This document shows positions 4,988-56,479 of a DNA stretch of 64,000 bases, piece after piece. The notes under the pieces are model-generated. The model was not told the origin of the DNA. It searched no databases and saw nothing but the letters and a program-made list of their open reading frames with translations. The translations under genes and the position numbers were made by a program. This DNA comes from Planctomycetota bacterium. GTDB taxonomy: Bacteria > Planctomycetota > UBA1135 > GCA-002686595. The stretch lies in assembly GCA_044359355.1 (NCBI GenBank), contig JBIKMH010000014.1:1-64000 (forward strand), read 5' to 3'. How positions within the stretch are numbered: position 1 is the first letter of the stretch; each line of letters starts with the position of its first letter.

Positions 4988-5566
4988 TCAGATGAGCGGC
5001 TCTACCTCGAAGGTGTCGAGCGTCAGTTGTTTGACGATGCGCACTTCGCTACCGGACTCGATGTCCCGGGCAGCACGGGTGCAGGCTTGGAACTCGCCCG
5101 TGCGGCCCTGCACGAGCACCTGAACTTTGCCTTTGCCGGTATTGTTGGCGGGAATGCGCAGGTAGACGCGCCCCACGAGCCCAACGGCGTTCTTCGTGTC
5201 CATGTTGCCGGCCGAGTGCAGTTTCTTCTGCATCGAGAACAGCCAGGCGACCGCCACCAGCATCACGGCGCCGGCTGCGACTCCGACCACCAGCGCCATG
5301 GCGTTGCTCGTCCCCTGCGCCAAGGCAGTCCAGCCACCCAGACCGAAGAAGCAGAAGAAGCTCGCCACGGAGCGCACCGAGAGCAGGCCCAGACCCTCGC
5401 CGTCGTGCACCTCGCCGCTTCCGGAGTGACCGATCTCGGGCAGGCCTTCGCCGAGCGCATCCCCGCCATCGTCGTGACCAAACAGCAGCATCACCGTCTG
5501 GACCAGCAGAATCAGCCCGCCGAGCGCAGCACAGCCAAGGAACACGGTCAGGAGCGAGAGATCCAT
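4988..5566 (-). CDS. NfeD-like membrane protein (YqiJ-like partner of flotillin)
   Basis: Internal ATG at 5566 (MDLSLL...). N-terminal TM helices plus a C-terminal OB-fold-like segment (GRVYLRIP...VQVLVQGRTGEFQA...VRIVKQ). Lies immediately upstream of flotillin in the classic nfeD-flotillin pairing. Confidence 0.75.
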   Translation of the reverse strand: MDLSLLTVFLGCAALGGLILLVQTVMLLFGHDDGGDALGEGLPEIGHSGSGEVHDGEGLGLLSVRSVASFFCFFGLGGWTALAQGTSNAMALVVGVAAGAVMLVAVAWLFSMQKKLHSAGNMDTKNAVGLVGRVYLRIPANNTGKGKVQVLVQGRTGEFQACTRAARDIESGSEVRIVKQLTLDTFEVEPLI

Positions 5567-49356: not shown

Positions 49357-51078
49357 ATGCCGCACGAAACCGCACTGATCGCGCTGCTCGCCGGCGGACT
49401 GGGACTCGCCTTCGTGCTGGGCCTGCTGGCGGCACGCGTCGGACTCCCGCCCCTCGTCGGCTACCTGCTCGCAGGTATCGCGATCGGTCCGTTCACACCG
49501 GGCCCCACGGCCGACACGGGCCTCGCCGCACAACTTTCCGAGATCGGCGTGATCCTGCTGATGTTCGGCGTGGGCATCCACTTCTCGCCGCGCGATCTCC
49601 TGGCCGTCCGCAAGATCGCCATCCCGGGTGCCTTGCTGCAGATCGCGGGCTCAACCCTGCTCGGTGCTCTGCTGGCGCATTGGTGGGGCTGGAGCTGGAC
49701 CGCGGGGATCATCTTCGGCATGTGCCTCGCCGTGGCGAGCACTGTGGTCCTGCTGCGCGCGCTCGAGGACCAGAATCGCCTGCATACCAGCGAGGGACGC
49801 ATCTCCGTCGGCTGGCTGATCATCGAGGACCTCTTCGTGGTGCTCGTACTGGTGGTCCTGCCGCTCTTCGCAACGTCGGACGACCCGCAGACCACCGGCG
49901 ACGAAGCCGGCTGGCAGGCCATCGCGCTTGGAATCGGCTCGACGCTGCTCAAGCTCCTCGGCTTCACGCTCGTGATGTTCTTCGCCGGCCGCCGATTGGT
50001 GCCGTGGATCCTCCGCCAGGTGATCCGCAGCGGCTCACGCGAGCTCTTTACGCTTGGCATCCTCGCCGTCTCGCTCGGCATCGCCTTCGGAGCCGCTGCG
50101 ATTTTCGATGTCTCGCTGGCGCTGGGTGCCTTCGCCGCCGGCATCGTGGTTGGCGAGACCGAGCTGAGCCAGCGCGCCGCTGAGGACGCTCTTCCGCTCC
50201 AGGAAGCCTTCGGTGTGCTGTTCTTCGTGGCCGTGGGCATGCTCTTCGACCCGCGCGTGCTCGTCGAGGACCCCTTGCATGTGCTCGCAGTCCTGCTGAC
50301 CATCCAGCTTGGCAAGTCCCTCTTCGCCTTCCTGATCATCACGCTGCTGCGCTACCCCCTGAGCGTGGCGCTGACCGTGCCTGCAGCCCTCGCCCAGGTG
50401 GGCGAGCTCTCCTTCATCCTCGTGGGCCTCGGCATCGAGCTACAACTCGTTCCCATGGAGGCCCAGAACCTGATCGTCGCCGGCGCGCTGCTCTCGATCA
50501 CCCTGAACCCATTCGTCTTCAGGAGCCTGCCTGCGATCGAGAAGCTGCTCGCGCGCATCCCCGGCTTCACGCGGCTCTATCCCCCCGACACTCAGCCAGC
50601 TTCCCCCCAAGGCACCCGTCCGCATGTCGTCCTCGTCGGGCACGGCCGCATCGGCGCACCGCTCGTCGATGCGCTGCATGCGGCCAATGTCCCGCTGCTC
50701 GTCGTCGATGCGCGCCGCGAGGAGATCGAACGCCTGCGTGCGCGCGGCATCGAGGCGCACTACGGCGACGCCAGCCGACCGGGCACGCTGCGGCGGGCGG
50801 GCCTCGACAAGGCTTCCCTGCTCGTGATCTCGATCAGCGATCCGCTGACCACACGCATGGTGCTCGAGGCGGCCACCGAGCAGGCCCCCGACCTCCCCAC
50901 GATCGTGCGCACGCAGAGCGAGTCGGAGCGCGAGACCCTGGCCGCAAGACCGAGCACGCTGGTACTCCTGAGCGAGGAGGAGCTGACGCGGGCACTGGTG
51001 CGCGAGGCCCTCGCGCGTACCGCTCAGCAGGAGCAGGCGGGCGTGGCCACGAGTCCGCACCCGGCAAGACCGCACTGA
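49357..51078 (+). CDS. Monovalent cation:proton antiporter (CPA2, KefB-like) with C-terminal RCK/TrkA-N domain
   Basis: About 12 TM helices (Na_H_Exchanger-like), then VVLVGHGRIGAPLVDAL Rossmann motif. Confidence 0.9.
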   Translation: MPHETALIALLAGGLGLAFVLGLLAARVGLPPLVGYLLAGIAIGPFTPGPTADTGLAAQLSEIGVILLMFGVGIHFSPRDLLAVRKIAIPGALLQIAGSTLLGALLAHWWGWSWTAGIIFGMCLAVASTVVLLRALEDQNRLHTSEGRISVGWLIIEDLFVVLVLVVLPLFATSDDPQTTGDEAGWQAIALGIGSTLLKLLGFTLVMFFAGRRLVPWILRQVIRSGSRELFTLGILAVSLGIAFGAAAIFDVSLALGAFAAGIVVGETELSQRAAEDALPLQEAFGVLFFVAVGMLFDPRVLVEDPLHVLAVLLTIQLGKSLFAFLIITLLRYPLSVALTVPAALAQVGELSFILVGLGIELQLVPMEAQNLIVAGALLSITLNPFVFRSLPAIEKLLARIPGFTRLYPPDTQPASPQGTRPHVVLVGHGRIGAPLVDALHAANVPLLVVDARREEIERLRARGIEAHYGDASRPGTLRRAGLDKASLLVISISDPLTTRMVLEAATEQAPDLPTIVRTQSESERETLAARPSTLVLLSEEELTRALVREALARTAQQEQAGVATSPHPARPH

Positions 51079-51080
51079 GC

Positions 51081-51099
51081 GTGCGGCGCGCACCTTTTT
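51081..51099 (+). terminator. Short hairpin plus T-run after the antiporter gene
   Basis: GTGCG-gcg-CGCAC followed by CTTTTTGG, 3 nt after the stop. Confidence 0.5.
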
Positions 51100-51199
51100 G
51101 GCGGGCGGGAAAGGGTCCGGGAATCCTGCGCAGCCAGTGGGCCGCAGCTTGAGGCCAGGTTGGTCCGCAACGGGGATTGTGCTAGAATTCCGCGCAGTT

Positions 51200-51275
51200 G
51201 CGGGCGTAACTCAGTTGGTAGAGTGTCAGCTTCCCAAGCTGAATGTCGCGGGTTCGAACCCCGTCGCCCGCTCCA
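51200..51275 (+). tRNA. tRNA-Gly (anticodon CCC)
   Basis: GCGGGCG/CGCCCGC acceptor, ACTC-AGTTGGTA-GAGT D arm, TCAGC-TTCCCAA-GCTGA anticodon arm, GCGGG-TTCGAAC-CCCGT T arm, encoded CCA. Position cross-checked against an overlapping ORF's codons. Confidence 0.9.
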
Positions 51276-51280
51276 AGCTT

Positions 51281-51725
51281 TCGGCGGTTGACACTGTCCA
51301 TCGTGTACTTCACATCGAGGCCGGTGTGGACATTGTCCTCGATCGAAGTGATGTTCGAGTTGCGGTCGTAGGTGATGACCGTTTGGTAGAGATCGCGGTC
51401 GGTCGCCAAATCCTTCGTCCAGCGATTCGTGGTGATGCGGTTGAAGCGATCCAGATCCACGATGGCGTTCGTGCCATCGTACACGCGTGAGAAACACGCA
51501 ATGGCGTTCAAGCGCGTACGGACTAGGGTGCCAACACCCAAGTATTCATACTGCGCAATCGTCACCCCACTGCCCGTATCCTCCACGACCGTCGAGACCC
51601 GCGAGGCCTCATCATCATGGAGACCGCCTGAGGTGCGGTAGGTGTAGGAGATCGAACGACTGCCGGAAAGGACCATGTTCGTCTCGCGCAGGGTTCGTCG
51701 CTCTCACCCAAGCGTACGGGACCTC
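51281..51725 (-). pseudogene. Orphan RHS core fragment (partial duplicate of rhs 53880-54300)
   Basis: About 445 nt at ~90% identity to an internal YD-repeat region of the rhs gene. It encodes SISYTYRTSGGLHD...ITYDRNSNITSIEDNVHTGLDVKYTMD with no rhs N-terminus, core end or toxin. Begins ~6 nt after the tRNA-Gly CCA. Confidence 0.75.
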
Positions 51726-51758
51726 GCAGTTGTCCCCGCGAGGTGGCGCAACGGTTAT

Positions 51759-52304
51759 TCAGAAATCACTTGATATTCGCCCGAGTCCTTCAAAGTACCG
51801 CAATTCATCCTCACGAAGCCTACGCTGAAAAACCCCGGAGGCGAAAACTCCGGAAGCTTCTCTATTCACTTCATGTTGTGAAGTCCAGAACACCTGTGGA
51901 CCATCGAACACTTCGTCGTCGGTATGAGCTAGGTGCACATCGGTTGAATAAGAAATCAATCTTTCGATCAGCCCATCCGTCGTGTAGTAGCGCCACTGCC
52001 CAACACGACGATAGGACGGGTTCAGACTTGGGTTGCTCGGCCACCACTGACCTTGACTCTGAAGGCTTCCATTTTCATGCCATTGTTTCCAGACTCCGAT
52101 CTTTCCCCACAACGGGTAATCTGTCTGTACATCGATTATTCGATATTCGCCACCTTGCTCTTTGAGTACCCCTGATGGCCAGCGAGTTTCGTGCCAGCGC
52201 ACACGGTCGACGGCCGTCGAGGCTCCCGAATACGACGAATCAAGGATGACAACGATCGCGCAAATGCTCAGCGCGCCAAACAAGACCTTTATCACGGTGC
52301 TCAT
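51759..52304 (-). CDS. Putative RHS immunity protein, membrane-anchored MORN-repeat (YwqK-like)
   Basis: ATG overlaps the rhs stop (caATGAgc). N-terminal TM (MSTVIKVLFGALSICAIVVIL); MORN-like repeats (GKIGVWKQWHENGSL, GQWRYYTTDGLIERLISY). GC content is visibly lower than the surrounding genome. Confidence 0.6.
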   Translation of the reverse strand: MSTVIKVLFGALSICAIVVILDSSYSGASTAVDRVRWHETRWPSGVLKEQGGEYRIIDVQTDYPLWGKIGVWKQWHENGSLQSQGQWWPSNPSLNPSYRRVGQWRYYTTDGLIERLISYSTDVHLAHTDDEVFDGPQVFWTSQHEVNREASGVFASGVFQRRLREDELRYFEGLGRISSDF

Positions 52305-55300
52305 TGGTTTACCTTGCAATCTCTCGTGTACTTCGCGACATCCTCCGCAGATGGGGTGCTTGTTGGTTTTTGTTCGAATCCATTACCAGAGAAATAAGGG
52401 GTGCACTGCTCACTGCAGCTCGCATGCCACCATGCGTAATACCAGTGAATGGGATACCAAGCACACCTTTGAGTCGAACCACACTGGCAGCACACTAGAA
52501 TATCGTCGCAATCGGCCCATACAAGAATTGGATCTTCATTGATGTACTTCACGCACCGATCCTTCTGTCCAGGCCAAGTATGACCCCAGATGTAATATGT
52601 CGATATACACGCACAATCCCCCGTCCCCGTAGGTCCGCCCCCTTCAGTTTCCTCCGAGTGCTCGTTGGTTATTGGTCGAAGGGGAGCGTTACTGCGGCGC
52701 ATAACGTGACGACCGATGGAATGATCGAGCTCGGAGGTAAGAAGGCTGGTTCCCGTCGGCCACGCGCCCTCAGTGAAGTTGGCAATCATCTGAGTATACA
52801 TTTGAGTTGAACAACGTAGCGGATCCCTTCTCCCCCACCTTCCCAGCTCCGCCATCAACACCCGATTGCGTGCGAGCCACTGGCTGCCAGCGAGGTTCGT
52901 CAACCCTTCATATCCCGCATAGCCCTTGCGGCTAGCCACCCCATTTGAGCTCAATACGCCTCGACCCAGCGTGATTCCTTGGTAGTTCGTCTGCAGCTCG
53001 CTCTTGTCGCTCGCATCGACATCACCATCCAGATCGACATCCCCGCGCACATCGTAAGCACTGGCCGTGATCCAGGTCTGCACCTGCGTGATGTCGGTCG
53101 CGTCGCAGTCGCCATCGGAGTCGGTGTCGCCACCAGGCAGCCCGATCGGGATGCCGTAGCTTGAGTACTTGACCCACTCCTTCAGCAGCCCGTTACCGCT
53201 CACCACCGCCGACACATCCGCGCGCCAGTTTTGCAGTAGGTAGTTGCGCTCTTCCAGCGTGCCATCGCTCGCGGCCGTCCAAGCGGTGTCCGCATCACGG
53301 TTCCTACAGATGACCAGATCGATGTAGCTCGATCCGCCCTGGCCGCTGGCTCCCGCTTGGTGCGGCACGAAGTCTTCCTTAGGGGCAGTATCGCTCTCCC
53401 CGAAGCGTGCAAGGAGCCGCCAGCGCTCATCAAACGCGTCGTAGTACCACTTGTCGTTGCTATCGACATCCCCATCGGTGTCGCTGTCCTCATGCACCCC
53501 GATGCGGTGGTTCAAGGCGTTGTAGCGGTACTCAGCAACAAGCGCTTGGGTAGAGGTGTTCTTGACCTTGCGCAAGCGGTAGAAGGCGTCGTACTCGTAC
53601 TCGTAGTGCTCGCCATCGTCGCTCAGATTTCCCGCCGCGTCGTAGGTGAGCGTGAAGTTGTTCGTGGCGTTGGAATCGGTGTCCCTAGCCGTCAGTTCAT
53701 TGACCGCGTTGTGAGTGCGGGTGTCGTCGTGCTCGCTGGTGTCGCTGAAGTCACCATCACCGTTGAGATCGAGCTTCTCCCGAGCCCAGTTGCCCGTGTG
53801 GCTCAAGGTCCACTGCTGATCCCGCGTCTTGCTGGTGATCGAGCCCGAGCTGAGTGTACCTTCTTCCGCTTGGATCAAGCGGTTGACGTTGTCCATCGTG
53901 TACTTCACATCGAGGCCGGTGTGGACATTGTCCTCGATCGAAGTGATGTTCGAGTTGCGGTCGTAGGTGATGACCGTCTGGTAGAGATCGCGATCGGTGG
54001 AGAGGTCTTTGGTCCAGCGATTGGTGGTGATGCGGTTGAAGCGATCCAGATCCACGATGGCGTTCGAGCCATCGTACACGCGTGAAAAGCACGCAATGGC
54101 GTTCAAGCGCGTGCGCACCAGAGTGCTGGTGCCTAAGTAGTCGTACTGCGCAATCGTCACCCCACTGCCCGTATCATCCACGACCGTCGAGACCCGCGAG
54201 GCCTCCTCATCGTGGAGACCGCCTGAGGTGCGGTAGGTGTAGGAGATCGAACGACTGCTGGGAAGCACCATGTTCGTCTTGCGCAGGGTGTTGCGACCAT
54301 TTGTCGCTTTCACCCAGGCATAGCTCACATCGTACTCGTCTCCCCCAGATGCGGCTACGGCTGAATTTCGATCTTGTTCAAAGCGCTCGAGGTTGGCCCA
54401 AGCGTCGTAGCTGTACCTGACCCCGTCCGTGGCGTTCCCAGCGGTGGTGGCGTCGTACTGCACGGCAGTGGCAAGGCGCCCAAGTGCGTCGTAGCTCCAC
54501 CCCTGGCGCCGCACCGCCCCATCAAAGCCCGAGGCAAGCGTCGAGACCACCTTCTTCACCATCCGACCGGCGCTGTCGTACTCCGTCTCGTAGACATTCC
54601 CTGACTGGTCCGACTTCCAGGTCTCCTGGCCTTGGGCGTTGTAGGCAAAGCTGACCACATCGCTGGAGCCTGAGGAGTCGGGGTAGGTGACGGTATCCGG
54701 AAGGTCATTGCGGGCAATGGCCGAATCCCCAGCCCCGCTGCCCTTGCTCGTACCGAAGCTGTAGGTGGTGACCTGATCCGCCTCAGGGCTGGGTAGGTCC
54801 GCCGTCAACGCCGTGCGCAAGCCGTCGGTGTAGCTGGTGATCAGCGCCACATCGTCTGCAGCACCCGAGGGCACCCCATCGACATAGTTTTGGATCTCCT
54901 TGGTGCGCCGGCCGAGGGCGTCGTACTCGTACTTGCGTACGAGGTTGAGAGGGTCGGTCACCGACTCCAGGCGCCCATCGGTTCCATAGGCGTTGGTGCT
55001 GCGCAGCGCGGTATCCGAGCGCGCGGGAGCAGTGGAAGGACGCGTCCAGGTCGCACCGCCATAGGTCCCGTACTCCACGCGGTCCACCTGACGCTCGACA
55101 CGGTCGTACCAGTAGGCACTGATCTGCACCCGGCCCTTGAGATCGCTCGCGGTGAGCGTCAGCGGGTCTAGGTCAGCATTGGTATCGAGCTTGCCGGTTG
55201 TCTCGCCGGTTGAGATGTCGCTGTGCAGGCGATCGAGCCGAGCCTCAAACAGCACCACGCCACTGGTCGTGCTTGCTGGGCGCGCCCCCCCCCGCTCCCA

Positions 55301-55315
55301 ACCCCGGGTCGGCAA
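52301..55315 (-). CDS. RHS-repeat (YD-repeat) polymorphic toxin, N-terminally truncated, with a Cys-rich C-terminal domain of unknown function
   Basis: 1004 aa from a TTG start directly after an in-frame stop. YD repeats throughout; RHS core end ...LMAELGRWGRRDPL; ~195-aa C-terminal tail rich in Cys/Trp/Tyr/His (CACISTYYIWGHTWPG...ILVCCQCGSTQRCAWYPIHWYYAWWHASCSEQC) with no known toxin motif. No PAAR or secretion N-domain. G9 tract 12 nt into the ORF. Confidence 0.85.
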   Translation of the reverse strand: MPTRGWERGGARPASTTSGVVLFEARLDRLHSDISTGETTGKLDTNADLDPLTLTASDLKGRVQISAYWYDRVERQVDRVEYGTYGGATWTRPSTAPARSDTALRSTNAYGTDGRLESVTDPLNLVRKYEYDALGRRTKEIQNYVDGVPSGAADDVALITSYTDGLRTALTADLPSPEADQVTTYSFGTSKGSGAGDSAIARNDLPDTVTYPDSSGSSDVVSFAYNAQGQETWKSDQSGNVYETEYDSAGRMVKKVVSTLASGFDGAVRRQGWSYDALGRLATAVQYDATTAGNATDGVRYSYDAWANLERFEQDRNSAVAASGGDEYDVSYAWVKATNGRNTLRKTNMVLPSSRSISYTYRTSGGLHDEEASRVSTVVDDTGSGVTIAQYDYLGTSTLVRTRLNAIACFSRVYDGSNAIVDLDRFNRITTNRWTKDLSTDRDLYQTVITYDRNSNITSIEDNVHTGLDVKYTMDNVNRLIQAEEGTLSSGSITSKTRDQQWTLSHTGNWAREKLDLNGDGDFSDTSEHDDTRTHNAVNELTARDTDSNATNNFTLTYDAAGNLSDDGEHYEYEYDAFYRLRKVKNTSTQALVAEYRYNALNHRIGVHEDSDTDGDVDSNDKWYYDAFDERWRLLARFGESDTAPKEDFVPHQAGASGQGGSSYIDLVICRNRDADTAWTAASDGTLEERNYLLQNWRADVSAVVSGNGLLKEWVKYSSYGIPIGLPGGDTDSDGDCDATDITQVQTWITASAYDVRGDVDLDGDVDASDKSELQTNYQGITLGRGVLSSNGVASRKGYAGYEGLTNLAGSQWLARNRVLMAELGRWGRRDPLRCSTQMYTQMIANFTEGAWPTGTSLLTSELDHSIGRHVMRRSNAPLRPITNEHSEETEGGGPTGTGDCACISTYYIWGHTWPGQKDRCVKYINEDPILVWADCDDILVCCQCGSTQRCAWYPIHWYYAWWHASCSEQCTPYFSGNGFEQKPTSTPSAEDVAKYTRDCKVNQ

Positions 55316-55443
55316 GGGTGGCTACCGACTCCCGAGCAGGGTCTCTACGACCTTGTGCGCAGCCCGCGGACGCAAGCCTCAGGCCACAATCTCACGAAGT
55401 AATTTGCACAAACGCGGGTTCAAGCCCGGCCACTCCAACCAGC

Positions 55444-56082
55444 ATGATCGCCACGGACTCCAACCGCGCTCCCAGGGCTTTCCTTGCACTCCTTCATCCG
55501 GGGCGTGTGCAGGAACTGCACGAGCGCCGGGACTGCGCCTGCGGCCTGTGGCCGGATCTGACGATCGCTTATGTCAACCCGGCCTGGGAGCGCTTCTCCA
55601 AGGACAACGGCGCCAACCCGGGATTCTCCATGCACTGGCGCGAGGGTTCCTCATTCCTTGACGGCGTCGGCCGCCCGCTGCGCGAGTACTACCGCACGCA
55701 CTTGCTCGATGCGCTGCACAAATCCCAGCCGTGGAGGAGCGAGTACGAGTGCTCCAGCCCCACGCTGTTCCGCCTCTACCAGATGGAAGCGGAGACCGTG
55801 GGCAACCGGGAAGGCCTGCTGATCACGCACACGCGCCTCGAACAGCGCCCCCACGACAAGACCACGGTGCGCGCTCCCGTGGATGCGACGCCCTGGAAGG
55901 ATCCGCACGGCCTGATCCAGCAGTGCAGCCACTGCCGCCGCGTGCGCCGCGCGGGCGAGGCCGAGGAGTGGGATTGGGTTCCGCAGTGGATCGAGCGCGT
56001 TCCGGAAACGGCCACGGGCAGCCTGTGCCCACCGTGCATCGCCACGCGCTATCCCGATCTCGTCAGGGGCAACACGGGCTGA
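55444..56082 (+). CDS. Hypothetical protein (PAS-like N-terminal region, C-terminal CxxC...CPPC zinc-ribbon-like)
   Basis: YVNPAWERFSKDNGANPGF..., QQCSHCRRV...SLCPPCIA. Confidence 0.45.
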   Translation: MIATDSNRAPRAFLALLHPGRVQELHERRDCACGLWPDLTIAYVNPAWERFSKDNGANPGFSMHWREGSSFLDGVGRPLREYYRTHLLDALHKSQPWRSEYECSSPTLFRLYQMEAETVGNREGLLITHTRLEQRPHDKTTVRAPVDATPWKDPHGLIQQCSHCRRVRRAGEAEEWDWVPQWIERVPETATGSLCPPCIATRYPDLVRGNTG

Positions 56083-56104
56083 GCCGGGCCCGGCGCCCGT
56101 CCGC

Positions 56105-56479
56105 TCACTCCAGCGAGTGGATCGCCCGCACGATGTGCGGCCACAACACGATCGCCAGGTCTTCGTTGCTCGACTGCAGCTTCCACGCGCGCTCGGCCAT
56201 CAGCACCACGCCGAACAGCGCGTGATACGCCAGCATGAGCGCCAGCACTCCGCGCAACAGCCCGGCGGACATGCGCTCCCAGGTGAGCGTGGCAGCCCAG
56301 GCGAGGCCCACCGAGACCCCGCCCACCACCAGGCCGATCAGCGTGTACGGCATCCAGTTGTGGGGCGCGTCCACTGCTGCCCGCAATACGGCCCAAGCGC
56401 TGATGAGCACCGTCAGGACGGCAAAGCTCCACAGCAGTGTGCGCGCCGGACCTGACCTCTGTGCCTCGGTTTCTTCCAC
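56105..56479 (-). CDS. Small integral membrane protein (hypothetical, 4 TM)
   Basis: 124 aa with four hydrophobic helices. Confidence 0.5.
   Translation of the reverse strand: MEETEAQRSGPARTLLWSFAVLTVLISAWAVLRAAVDAPHNWMPYTLIGLVVGGVSVGLAWAATLTWERMSAGLLRGVLALMLAYHALFGVVLMAERAWKLQSSNEDLAIVLWPHIVRAIHSLE

Follow-up and report, generated by a model that had tools for sequence, protein, structure and literature searches.

The subject of this study is an rhs gene with its C-terminal (CT) region and a coupled immunity candidate, located within a 64,000-nucleotide (nt) stretch of DNA from a Planctomycetota bacterium (contig JBIKMH010000014.1, positions 1-64,000, forward strand; hereafter the window). 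The reading that is favored here, if only by a modest degree, is that the locus represents a decayed RHS array with an orphan-type rhs-CT/immunity module that has been retained for the sake of immunity or as material for recombination. According to this reading, the "rhs" gene would be the 3′ ~45% of a gene for a Sec-exported RHS protein of ~2100 amino acids (aa) that has lost its promoter-proximal 1113 codons, and a foreign CT/immunity cassette would have been joined directly after the first catalytic Asp motif (RRDPL). The combination of a 5′ truncation, the lack of an export signal, a foreign CT, a coupled immunity gene, a downstream rhs fragment and a position in a tRNA slot matches the concept of orphan rhs-CT/rhsI modules as set out in excerpts of PMC3967940. 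An initial annotation of the window, made from the DNA sequence by itself, had treated the locus as a stand-alone toxin gene, whereas the tRNA-linked variable island and the second rhs fragment give it the anatomy of an orphan array. The features of the locus are listed below in the order of their window coordinates, with the basis of each assignment in parentheses.

51200..51275, plus strand: tRNA-Gly(ccc) (ARAGORN; Rfam RF00005, 70 bits)
51276-55479: variable island, ~4.2 kb, bounded by tRNA-Gly(ccc) on one side and a conserved hypothetical gene on the other
51284..51700, minus strand: downstream rhs core fragment, corresponding to about rhs codons 343-479 (DNA identity, tblastn with RHS homologues)
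51759..52304, minus strand: immunity candidate, 181 aa (sequence, Pfam MORN_2, hydropathy, low-confidence AlphaFold2 (AF2) model)
52304..52621, minus strand: CT domain rich in Cys/Trp/Tyr/His, putative toxin, aa ~899-1004 (composition)
52622..52816, minus strand: CT linker, aa 834-898, in place of the last ~25 core residues (alignment with 65 homologues, hidden Markov model (HMM), hhalign)
52817..55267, minus strand: conserved rhs core with YD repeats, aa ~17-833 (Pfam/TIGR, tblastn/blastn limits, profile alignment)
52991..53134, minus strand: dockerin-like Asp-rich insert in the core, aa 728-775 (clade profile vs dockerin chains)
55268..55315, minus strand: 5′ leader of the rhs open reading frame (ORF), non-homologous, with a 9-nt G-run at 55285-55293 (homology start, indel in sister contig L002, JGI calls)

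The RHS core and its C-terminal end

The rhs ORF (52301-55315, minus strand) encodes 1004 aa when read from a TTG codon. Its identification as a YD-repeat rhs gene in the initial annotation was confirmed by matches to RHS_repeat (PF05593, E=4.4e-12 over three stretches) and to the TIGR01643 YD repeat (E=9e-9). A total of 290 RHS homologues were found, mostly in metagenome-assembled genomes (MAGs) of Planctomycetota and Phycisphaerae, and the best homologue beyond the window's own population scored 1067 bits. The core, delimited at 52817/52818 and 55267 by tblastn and blastn comparisons with the related genome L094 and other homologues, contains the stretch "...ELGRWGRRDPL" at aa 821-833 with RRDPL at aa 829-833. 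Among the BLAST alignments of homologues that were tallied, 55 out of 92 end at aa 831-833, and the DNA identity with three rhs copies of L094 stops at 52818. Two relatives are 98% (P0019) and 92% (P0010) identical to the rhs protein up to RRDPL and carry unrelated CTs beyond this point. The sharp core boundary together with the CT swapping on the P0019 and P0010 cores therefore indicates the classic polymorphic-toxin architecture that had been proposed for the gene.

In at least 60 relatives the core runs on past RDPL for a further 25 aa (GYVDGxNLYxYVxSxPxxxxDPxGL), and with the clade profile this core end can be aligned to where the autoprotease lies in TccC3, YenC2, RHS2 and Tse5 ("...GRWLSSDPAGTIDGLNLYRMVRNNPVTLLDPDGLM"). 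The two Asp residues of the clade are 23 residues apart and map to TccC3 "SSDPAG...LDPDGL", with cleavage after DPxGL; based on this profile alignment the two residues correspond to the catalytic dyad. Mutation of either Asp in P. protegens RhsA abolishes C-terminal cleavage and killing (PMC8765631). The first catalytic Asp is present in the window protein as D831 (codon 52823-52825), and the sequence after the D831 motif reads RCSTQMYTQMIANFTEGAWPTGT.

No second PxxxxDPxGL motif was identified in the window protein. With an HMM built from the 27-aa tail the score is -0.8, a value that 56 out of 300 shuffled sequences reach or exceed, hhalign of the protein against the clade profile stops at RRDPLRCS, TIGR03696 has no match in the rhs ORF, and none of the alternative reading frames at the junction encodes a second Asp motif. 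A degenerate version of the motif (a D-to-W change, with STQMYTQMIANFTEGAWPTGT aligned to GxNLYxYVxSNPxxxxDPxGL by MAFFT and BLAST) was considered and rejected based on the HMM, the shuffled sequences and hhalign. Judged from these comparisons the second motif is absent and not mutated, and the HMM, hhalign and reading frame analyses place the junction inside the protease region: a cassette joined right after RRDPL leaves the gene without the second Asp and the cleavage site. The core end that had been described as recognizable is thus found at RRDPL, whereas the core of the relatives normally runs to the second motif. Apart from the core end, and there only with the clade profile, no sequence match to solved RHS proteins was found.

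An Asp-rich insert (GGDTDSDGDCDATD...DVDLDGDVDASD, aa 728-775) is located just ahead of the core end and is kept across the clade. The clade profile matches three cellulosomal dockerin chains (2vn5_B, 2vn6_B and 5lxv_B, E~2e-4 to 3e-3), and a dockerin-like module within an RHS protein may be linked to surface anchoring.

The 5′ truncation and the start codon

The rhs gene aligns to the gene of a 2124-aa RHS protein in L094 only from nt 5528 of the latter (codon 1114), which means that 1113 N-terminal codons are missing from the window rhs. Relative to L094, the missing codons encode the Sec signal peptide and upstream YD repeats. Three further relatives (P0109, P0082 and P0095) reach ~1100 aa beyond the upstream end of the window ORF and likewise begin with Sec-type signal peptides. 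The truncation noted in the initial annotation, including the absence of the N-terminus and of PAAR or prePAAR, is therefore real and far larger than had been implied (~1113 aa including the signal peptide). The initial annotation had also suggested a search for the missing N-terminal portion; screening all 64 kb of the window revealed no RHS homology beyond 52817-55267 and 51284-51700 and no N-terminal part. The window ORF encodes no signal peptide, no other export domain and no PAAR/prePAAR/VgrG-binding N-terminus, and none of the features of Rhs effectors delivered by a type VI secretion system (T6SS) were found in it, whereas Sec-type signal peptides are found at the beginning of those relatives that extend to the N-terminus. 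Because L094 and the window share no synteny on the left flank of L094, the end-points of the 5′ deletion could not be reconstructed.

The TTG start codon of the initial annotation is doubtful. Homology to other RHS proteins starts at ~aa 17, so that the TTG at 55315 precedes 16-19 non-homologous codons. Within this leader, the 9-nt homopolymer at 55285-55293 (G on the minus strand) differs by a 1-nt indel in the sister contig L002, which shifts the upstream frame; the G-run may be prone to slippage or may reflect an artefact of sequencing or assembly. The JGI gene call corresponds to a 985-aa product and fits a GTG start at 55258. From the sequence comparison, the leader (55268-55315) is probably not coding and the GTG at 55258 is the likelier start. 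The start codon is not conserved.

As encoded, the truncated toxin would be unable to be exported, to form a closed shell, to be encapsulated or to cleave itself, and in view of the missing signal peptide, half of the shell and release site it is considered non-deployable. This argues against an active stand-alone pair, in which an RHS protein translated from an internal start would bring the CT to the periplasm or membrane of competitors while the MORN protein protects the producer. Such a pair would be in line with the intact ORFs and their translational coupling through ATGA, with the retention of the locus in many independent assemblies and with the divergent intergenic region of ~130-190 nt upstream of rhs, which could hold a promoter. 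It is nevertheless improbable: neither a signal peptide nor an export domain is encoded, the 1113 N-terminal codons that include the YD repeats of the shell are gone, the second Asp and the cleavage motif needed for release in the studied Rhs and Tc proteins are absent, the start codon is not conserved, and a search of 51000-56200 for sigma-70-like promoters, which is a weak test in the case of a planctomycete, gave none.

The CT region

The region after RRDPL consists of 171 aa, and not of the ~195 aa initially assigned to it. The reported richness in Cys, Trp, Tyr and His holds for the region as a whole (12 Cys, 8 Trp, 9 Tyr and 6 His), but only aa ~899-1004, with 11 out of the 12 CT Cys, are Cys-rich. 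The preceding aa 834-898 are linker-like, with no Cys after C835 and a predicted local distance difference test (pLDDT) score of 28-34 in a poor model.

The suggested HMM searches agree with the initial impression that the CT matches no known toxin. No toxin family match was found in Pfam (E<=0.1 for the whole ORF, E<=0.01 for the CT alone) or NCBIfam (E<=1), and there was no match among the PDB sequences (best E=0.72). An exhaustive phmmer search of 1.84e9 cluster representatives (50% identity) retrieved only P0002, a repetitive protein in which 19-24 aa were matched five times and which was rejected as spurious. The CT shows no similarity to the CTs of 65 clade relatives; a BLAST extension to aa 973 against P0021 was discarded as CT similarity after direct comparison showed none. 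A scan of metagenome contigs with the CT pattern returned one further locus, which is 99% identical. The results of these searches have to be read with their sensitivity in mind, as a word-index search with the CT gave no match yet missed the 100%-identical CT in its self cluster P0003. Furthermore, the representatives at 50% identity were probably clustered by the long RHS core so that CT relatives may be masked, and the CT query found no representative of its own cluster, which indicates that polymorphic-toxin CTs are poorly visible to such searches. The structure prediction that had been suggested for the CT was run with AF2 and was unusable; the single-sequence models of the CT (pLDDT 38.5) and of the immunity protein (37.0) are too poor for a fold search.

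The drop in GC content that had been taken as a sign of a foreign cassette was reproduced. The GC content is down to 0.49-0.54 across 51700-52750, and the GC content at third codon positions (GC3) is 0.53 in the CT and 0.54 in the immunity gene compared with 0.78 in the rhs core and 0.86-0.89 in the neighboring housekeeping genes. Given the local composition, stretches of 171 and 181 codons without a stop each have a probability of about 2e-4 of arising by chance, so that both ORFs are far longer than expected. Based on composition, the CT/immunity cassette is judged to be foreign and horizontally acquired from a donor of ~50% GC.

The lack of CT relatives is not exceptional. Within this planctomycetal RHS clade, a Cys-rich CT without relatives is the rule: the 65 CTs fall into 59 sequence families, and a Pfam match was obtained for 3 out of 53 (two phospholipase A2 and one peptidase M76). 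The median Cys content is 6.3% in the clade CTs vs 0.36% in the core, the Cys count is even in 48 out of 65 CTs (p=7.6e-5), and the immunity genes of the relatives also encode proteins anchored by a signal or transmembrane (TM) segment. The even Cys counts, the phospholipase A2 (PLA2) and HExxH enzymes, the Sec signal peptides and the anchored immunity proteins point to disulfide-bonded, extracytoplasmic toxins in the clade. By analogy with these clade-wide features the window CT is probably a disulfide-bonded, envelope-acting toxin domain; the earlier suggestion of a disulfide-rich toxin that acts in the periplasm or on the membrane gains indirect support from the clade (signal peptides, even Cys counts, PLA2, anchored immunity proteins), and applies to the window CT by extension. 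The more specific proposal, that aa ~899-1004 form or formed a functional disulfide-bonded envelope toxin with a new fold which represents a Sec-exported, T6SS-independent clade of RHS proteins of ~2100 aa and is neutralized outside the cytoplasm by the membrane-anchored MORN protein, is tentative and rather doubtful as a whole.

Two types of enzymatic motif were observed among the clade CTs. Those of P0022, P0085 and P0007/P0023/P0031/P0042/P0050/P0073 contain the PLA2 motif CCxxHDxCY (Pfam PLA2) or a Cys-rich HExxH, and the HExxH-type CTs share the Cys-rich pattern ...VCC.G...C...HExxH. The only larger CT family in the clade consists of P0031, P0042, P0050 and P0079.

Alternatively, the window CT might act as a Cys-rich module with a role in binding or structure that remains attached to the shell, with the MORN protein as its partner and not its antidote. 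The absence of a recognizable catalytic motif, of the cleavage motif and of homology to any toxin would be expected under this explanation. However, the position, size and hypervariability of the CT and its coupling to a small exported gene are typical of the CT/immunity cassettes of the clade, some clade CTs are recognizable phospholipase A2 or HExxH enzymes, and the cassette, foreign in its composition, moves as a pair, which makes a non-toxin role very unlikely.

The immunity candidate

The TGA stop codon of rhs and the ATG start codon of the immunity gene overlap as ATGA at 52301-52304, as initially annotated. The 181-aa product has a strongly hydrophobic N-terminus (Kyte–Doolittle hydropathy of 2.59 for aa 3-21) and about three MORN_2-like repeats. 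These two features are in line with the earlier description as a membrane-anchored YwqK-type MORN protein, whereas the Pfam match (25.8 bits, E=8.6e-6) lies below the gathering score of 29.6. In the AF2 prediction a helix (aa 3-25) is followed by beta-hairpins, with a poor model beyond the N-terminal helix. A search for relatives of the protein returned only one, which is 99% identical. In a pairwise comparison the window protein shows 23% identity (E=7e-4) to the product of a TM-anchored MORN gene in L094, which scores 43 bits, above the Pfam gathering score, and likewise combines a TM segment with MORN repeats.

Gene order and ATGA coupling make the 181-aa protein a candidate for an exported, membrane-anchored immunity protein of the MORN type. 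It resembles the YwqK/MORN_2 antitoxins (PF07661) as a small protein of MORN-variant repeats encoded right after a polymorphic toxin, but differs from them in its score below the Pfam threshold and in its N-terminal TM/signal segment, which suggests an extracytoplasmic location. The exported MORN protein would be the part of the module that is likeliest to be still useful, as, should a neighbor deploy the CT, it could neutralize this domain in the periplasm or at the membrane. In other systems orphan immunity genes are often retained and protective, according to excerpts of PMC3967940 and PMC10539506.

The tRNA-linked variable island

The slot occupied by the rhs module was compared with that of an rhs-free Planctomycetia MAG (L013) whose antiporter is 80% identical. 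In this genome the antiporter and tRNA-Gly are followed by two unrelated genes in the slot and, beyond the slot, by the conserved hypothetical, membrane and AHSA1 genes that the window also carries. Homology between the window and L013 is lost between 51275 and 55480, and the whole rhs locus therefore constitutes a 4.2-kb variable island. The downstream rhs fragment (51284-51700) is 91-92% identical at the DNA level to rhs 53879-54289 and is also matched by RHS homologues in tblastn searches. The fragment breaks off at its 3′ end, 8 nt short of the 3′ end of the tRNA, and no CT is attached to it. A partial tRNA repeat of the attL/attR type was not found inside 51276-55600. Judged from the sequence comparisons, the 3′ end of tRNA-Gly(ccc) is one of the boundaries of the island and an integration hot spot.

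In two related genomes rhs fragments have their junction at a distance of a few to ~40 nt from the tRNA-Gly(ccc) 3′ end (51276-51283 in the window, 15138-15174 in L094), and the cut points of the fragments differ in their position within the core (...TMDSVNR in the window, ...ICRNRDA in L094). Repeated deletions tied to island integration or excision at the tRNA are one possibility for the origin of these joins.

As in the window, genes for PhoX, PepX, the antiporter and tRNA-Gly flank the RHS arrays of L094 and L095 on one side. The L094 array comprises the 2124-aa RHS protein with a signal peptide (RHS_repeat is its only Pfam match), a 445-aa FG-GAP protein, a 620-aa orphan rhs product (P0010), the TM-anchored MORN_2 protein and a further rhs fragment cut at the same tRNA. 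An arrangement with the main rhs upstream is thus present at the same tRNA-Gly in L094. A further relative (L093) carries an rhs-CT, an ATGA-coupled gene for a TM-anchored protein and another rhs fragment. The FG-GAP/beta-propeller protein of L094 (8578-9915) has a signal peptide and is encoded right after the 2124-aa RHS protein; it is a candidate for an unusually large immunity or accessory protein.

The upstream neighbor of the module (55444-56082, plus strand), which also adjoins the island slot in L013, is divergent to rhs and encodes a conserved hypothetical protein of 212 aa with a C-terminal CxxC...CxxC pattern. It was first taken as a PAS-like protein, an assignment that was rejected as no Pfam match was obtained. 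Among the scanned neighbors in the window, the only Pfam matches were AHSA1 and TerB/DUF533; PhoX, peptidase S15 and a Na/H exchanger were added by the gene calls of the sister contigs. No T6SS gene neighborhood was recognized among these genes.

Variation within the population

Sequence variation was found between two haplotypes. The second haplotype carries C936F and R950S in the CT and N91P in the immunity protein with no synonymous changes in these regions, whereas the changes in its core are mostly synonymous and clustered. In three contigs of the second haplotype (L001, L002 and L004) the stretch of identity with the window breaks off within the tRNA, at the equivalent of 51231.

Further differences were seen in two of the contigs. 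In L001 (2755-12227) a partial tRNA 3′ half is located beside an rhs fragment and is followed by a different island that encodes Transposase_mut, a resolvase, an Mrr_cat-like gene, BrxL (BREX) and an SDH-protease/NfeD pair. In the Logan contig L008 (1-380, corresponding to window 53978-54143) the version of the downstream fragment is found inside the main rhs, with 25 clustered differences; this tract could result either from gene conversion between the two rhs copies or from an assembly chimera across the repeat.

Several observations weigh against a decayed array that is kept for immunity or recombination. A total of 13 sister contigs share the arrangement of the window, and the ORF of 985/1004 codons and the ATGA coupling are intact in 13 out of 13, which would also fit an expressed gene. 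The lack of synonymous changes in CT and immunity protein alike fits either relaxed constraint or toxin–immunity co-evolution, with numbers too small to distinguish the two. A full-length main rhs, which belongs to the definition of the orphan class, was not found in the 64-kb window, a recombination partner rhs elsewhere in the genome would have to be assumed, and the module could equally be young debris.

In the extreme case, the toxin fragment and the immunity gene would be a wholly dead relic, that is, pseudogene-like debris from a young deletion within an RHS array. This would account for an array that is truncated at both ends with an rhs fragment cut at the tRNA, for the restriction of changes in the CT and immunity protein to non-synonymous ones, including the loss of 1 out of 12 Cys in the second haplotype, and for the repeated turnover of the same tRNA-Gly slot. 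It is less easily reconciled with 352 stop-free codons at ~50% GC (p about 2e-4 for each ORF), with the preserved coupling and TM anchor, and with the common retention and protective role of orphan immunity genes elsewhere (excerpts of PMC3967940 and PMC10539506). A dead relic is therefore regarded as unlikely, although it is a more serious contender than an active pair, and the decayed orphan-type module with a retained function is preferred.

Comparison with known systems and implications

The closest likeness of the preferred orphan-type module is to the orphan rhs-CT/rhsI modules of the Enterobacteriaceae (e.g., Salmonella Typhimurium STM0292; Koskiniemi et al. 2014), which excerpts of PMC3967940 describe as 5′-truncated core fragments without export signals, each with a distinct CT and an adjacent immunity gene. 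According to the same excerpts, there are several fragments per locus and the core homology permits recombination with the full-length gene. The swapping of CTs on near-identical cores (P0019 and P0010) follows the pattern of the enterobacterial orphan loci, and the 2.4 kb of core homology in the window could allow the cassette to recombine onto a full-length rhs. Unlike the enterobacterial modules, the one in the window has no main rhs upstream, its fragment is of unusual length (~985 aa), its parent family is exported through Sec in a planctomycete and has no link to a T6SS, and its junction eliminates the DPxGL, the usual marker of where the CT begins.

The relatives of the window protein share a signal peptide, the absence of PAAR/VgrG/prePAAR and the modular organization of core, variable CT and immunity gene with the Sec-dependent RHS/YD toxins (e.g., B. 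subtilis WapA, and the RHS class exported through T2SS/Sec in Zhang et al. 2012, PMC3482391), but the clade of the window has a dockerin-like insert and its CTs are mostly Cys-rich and uncharacterized. The clade profile also aligns to the C-terminal aspartyl autoprotease of the TcB-TcC cocoon (TcdB2-TccC3, YenC2) and of the T6SS proteins RhsA/Tse5, whereas the window protein keeps only D831 and has neither the second motif nor the shell's N-terminal half.

Taken by itself, the locus is of little significance, as truncated modules of the orphan type are long familiar from the rhs loci of enterobacteria. The loss of the second catalytic Asp at the junction offers a natural test of whether the cassettes need self-cleavage. 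The wider interest lies in the planctomycetal clade, in which Sec signal peptides, a dockerin-like insert, small disulfide-type CTs and exported immunity proteins imply envelope toxins that are independent of a T6SS. Since nearly all CTs of the clade belong to unknown families, the clade would be a source of new toxin and immunity folds.

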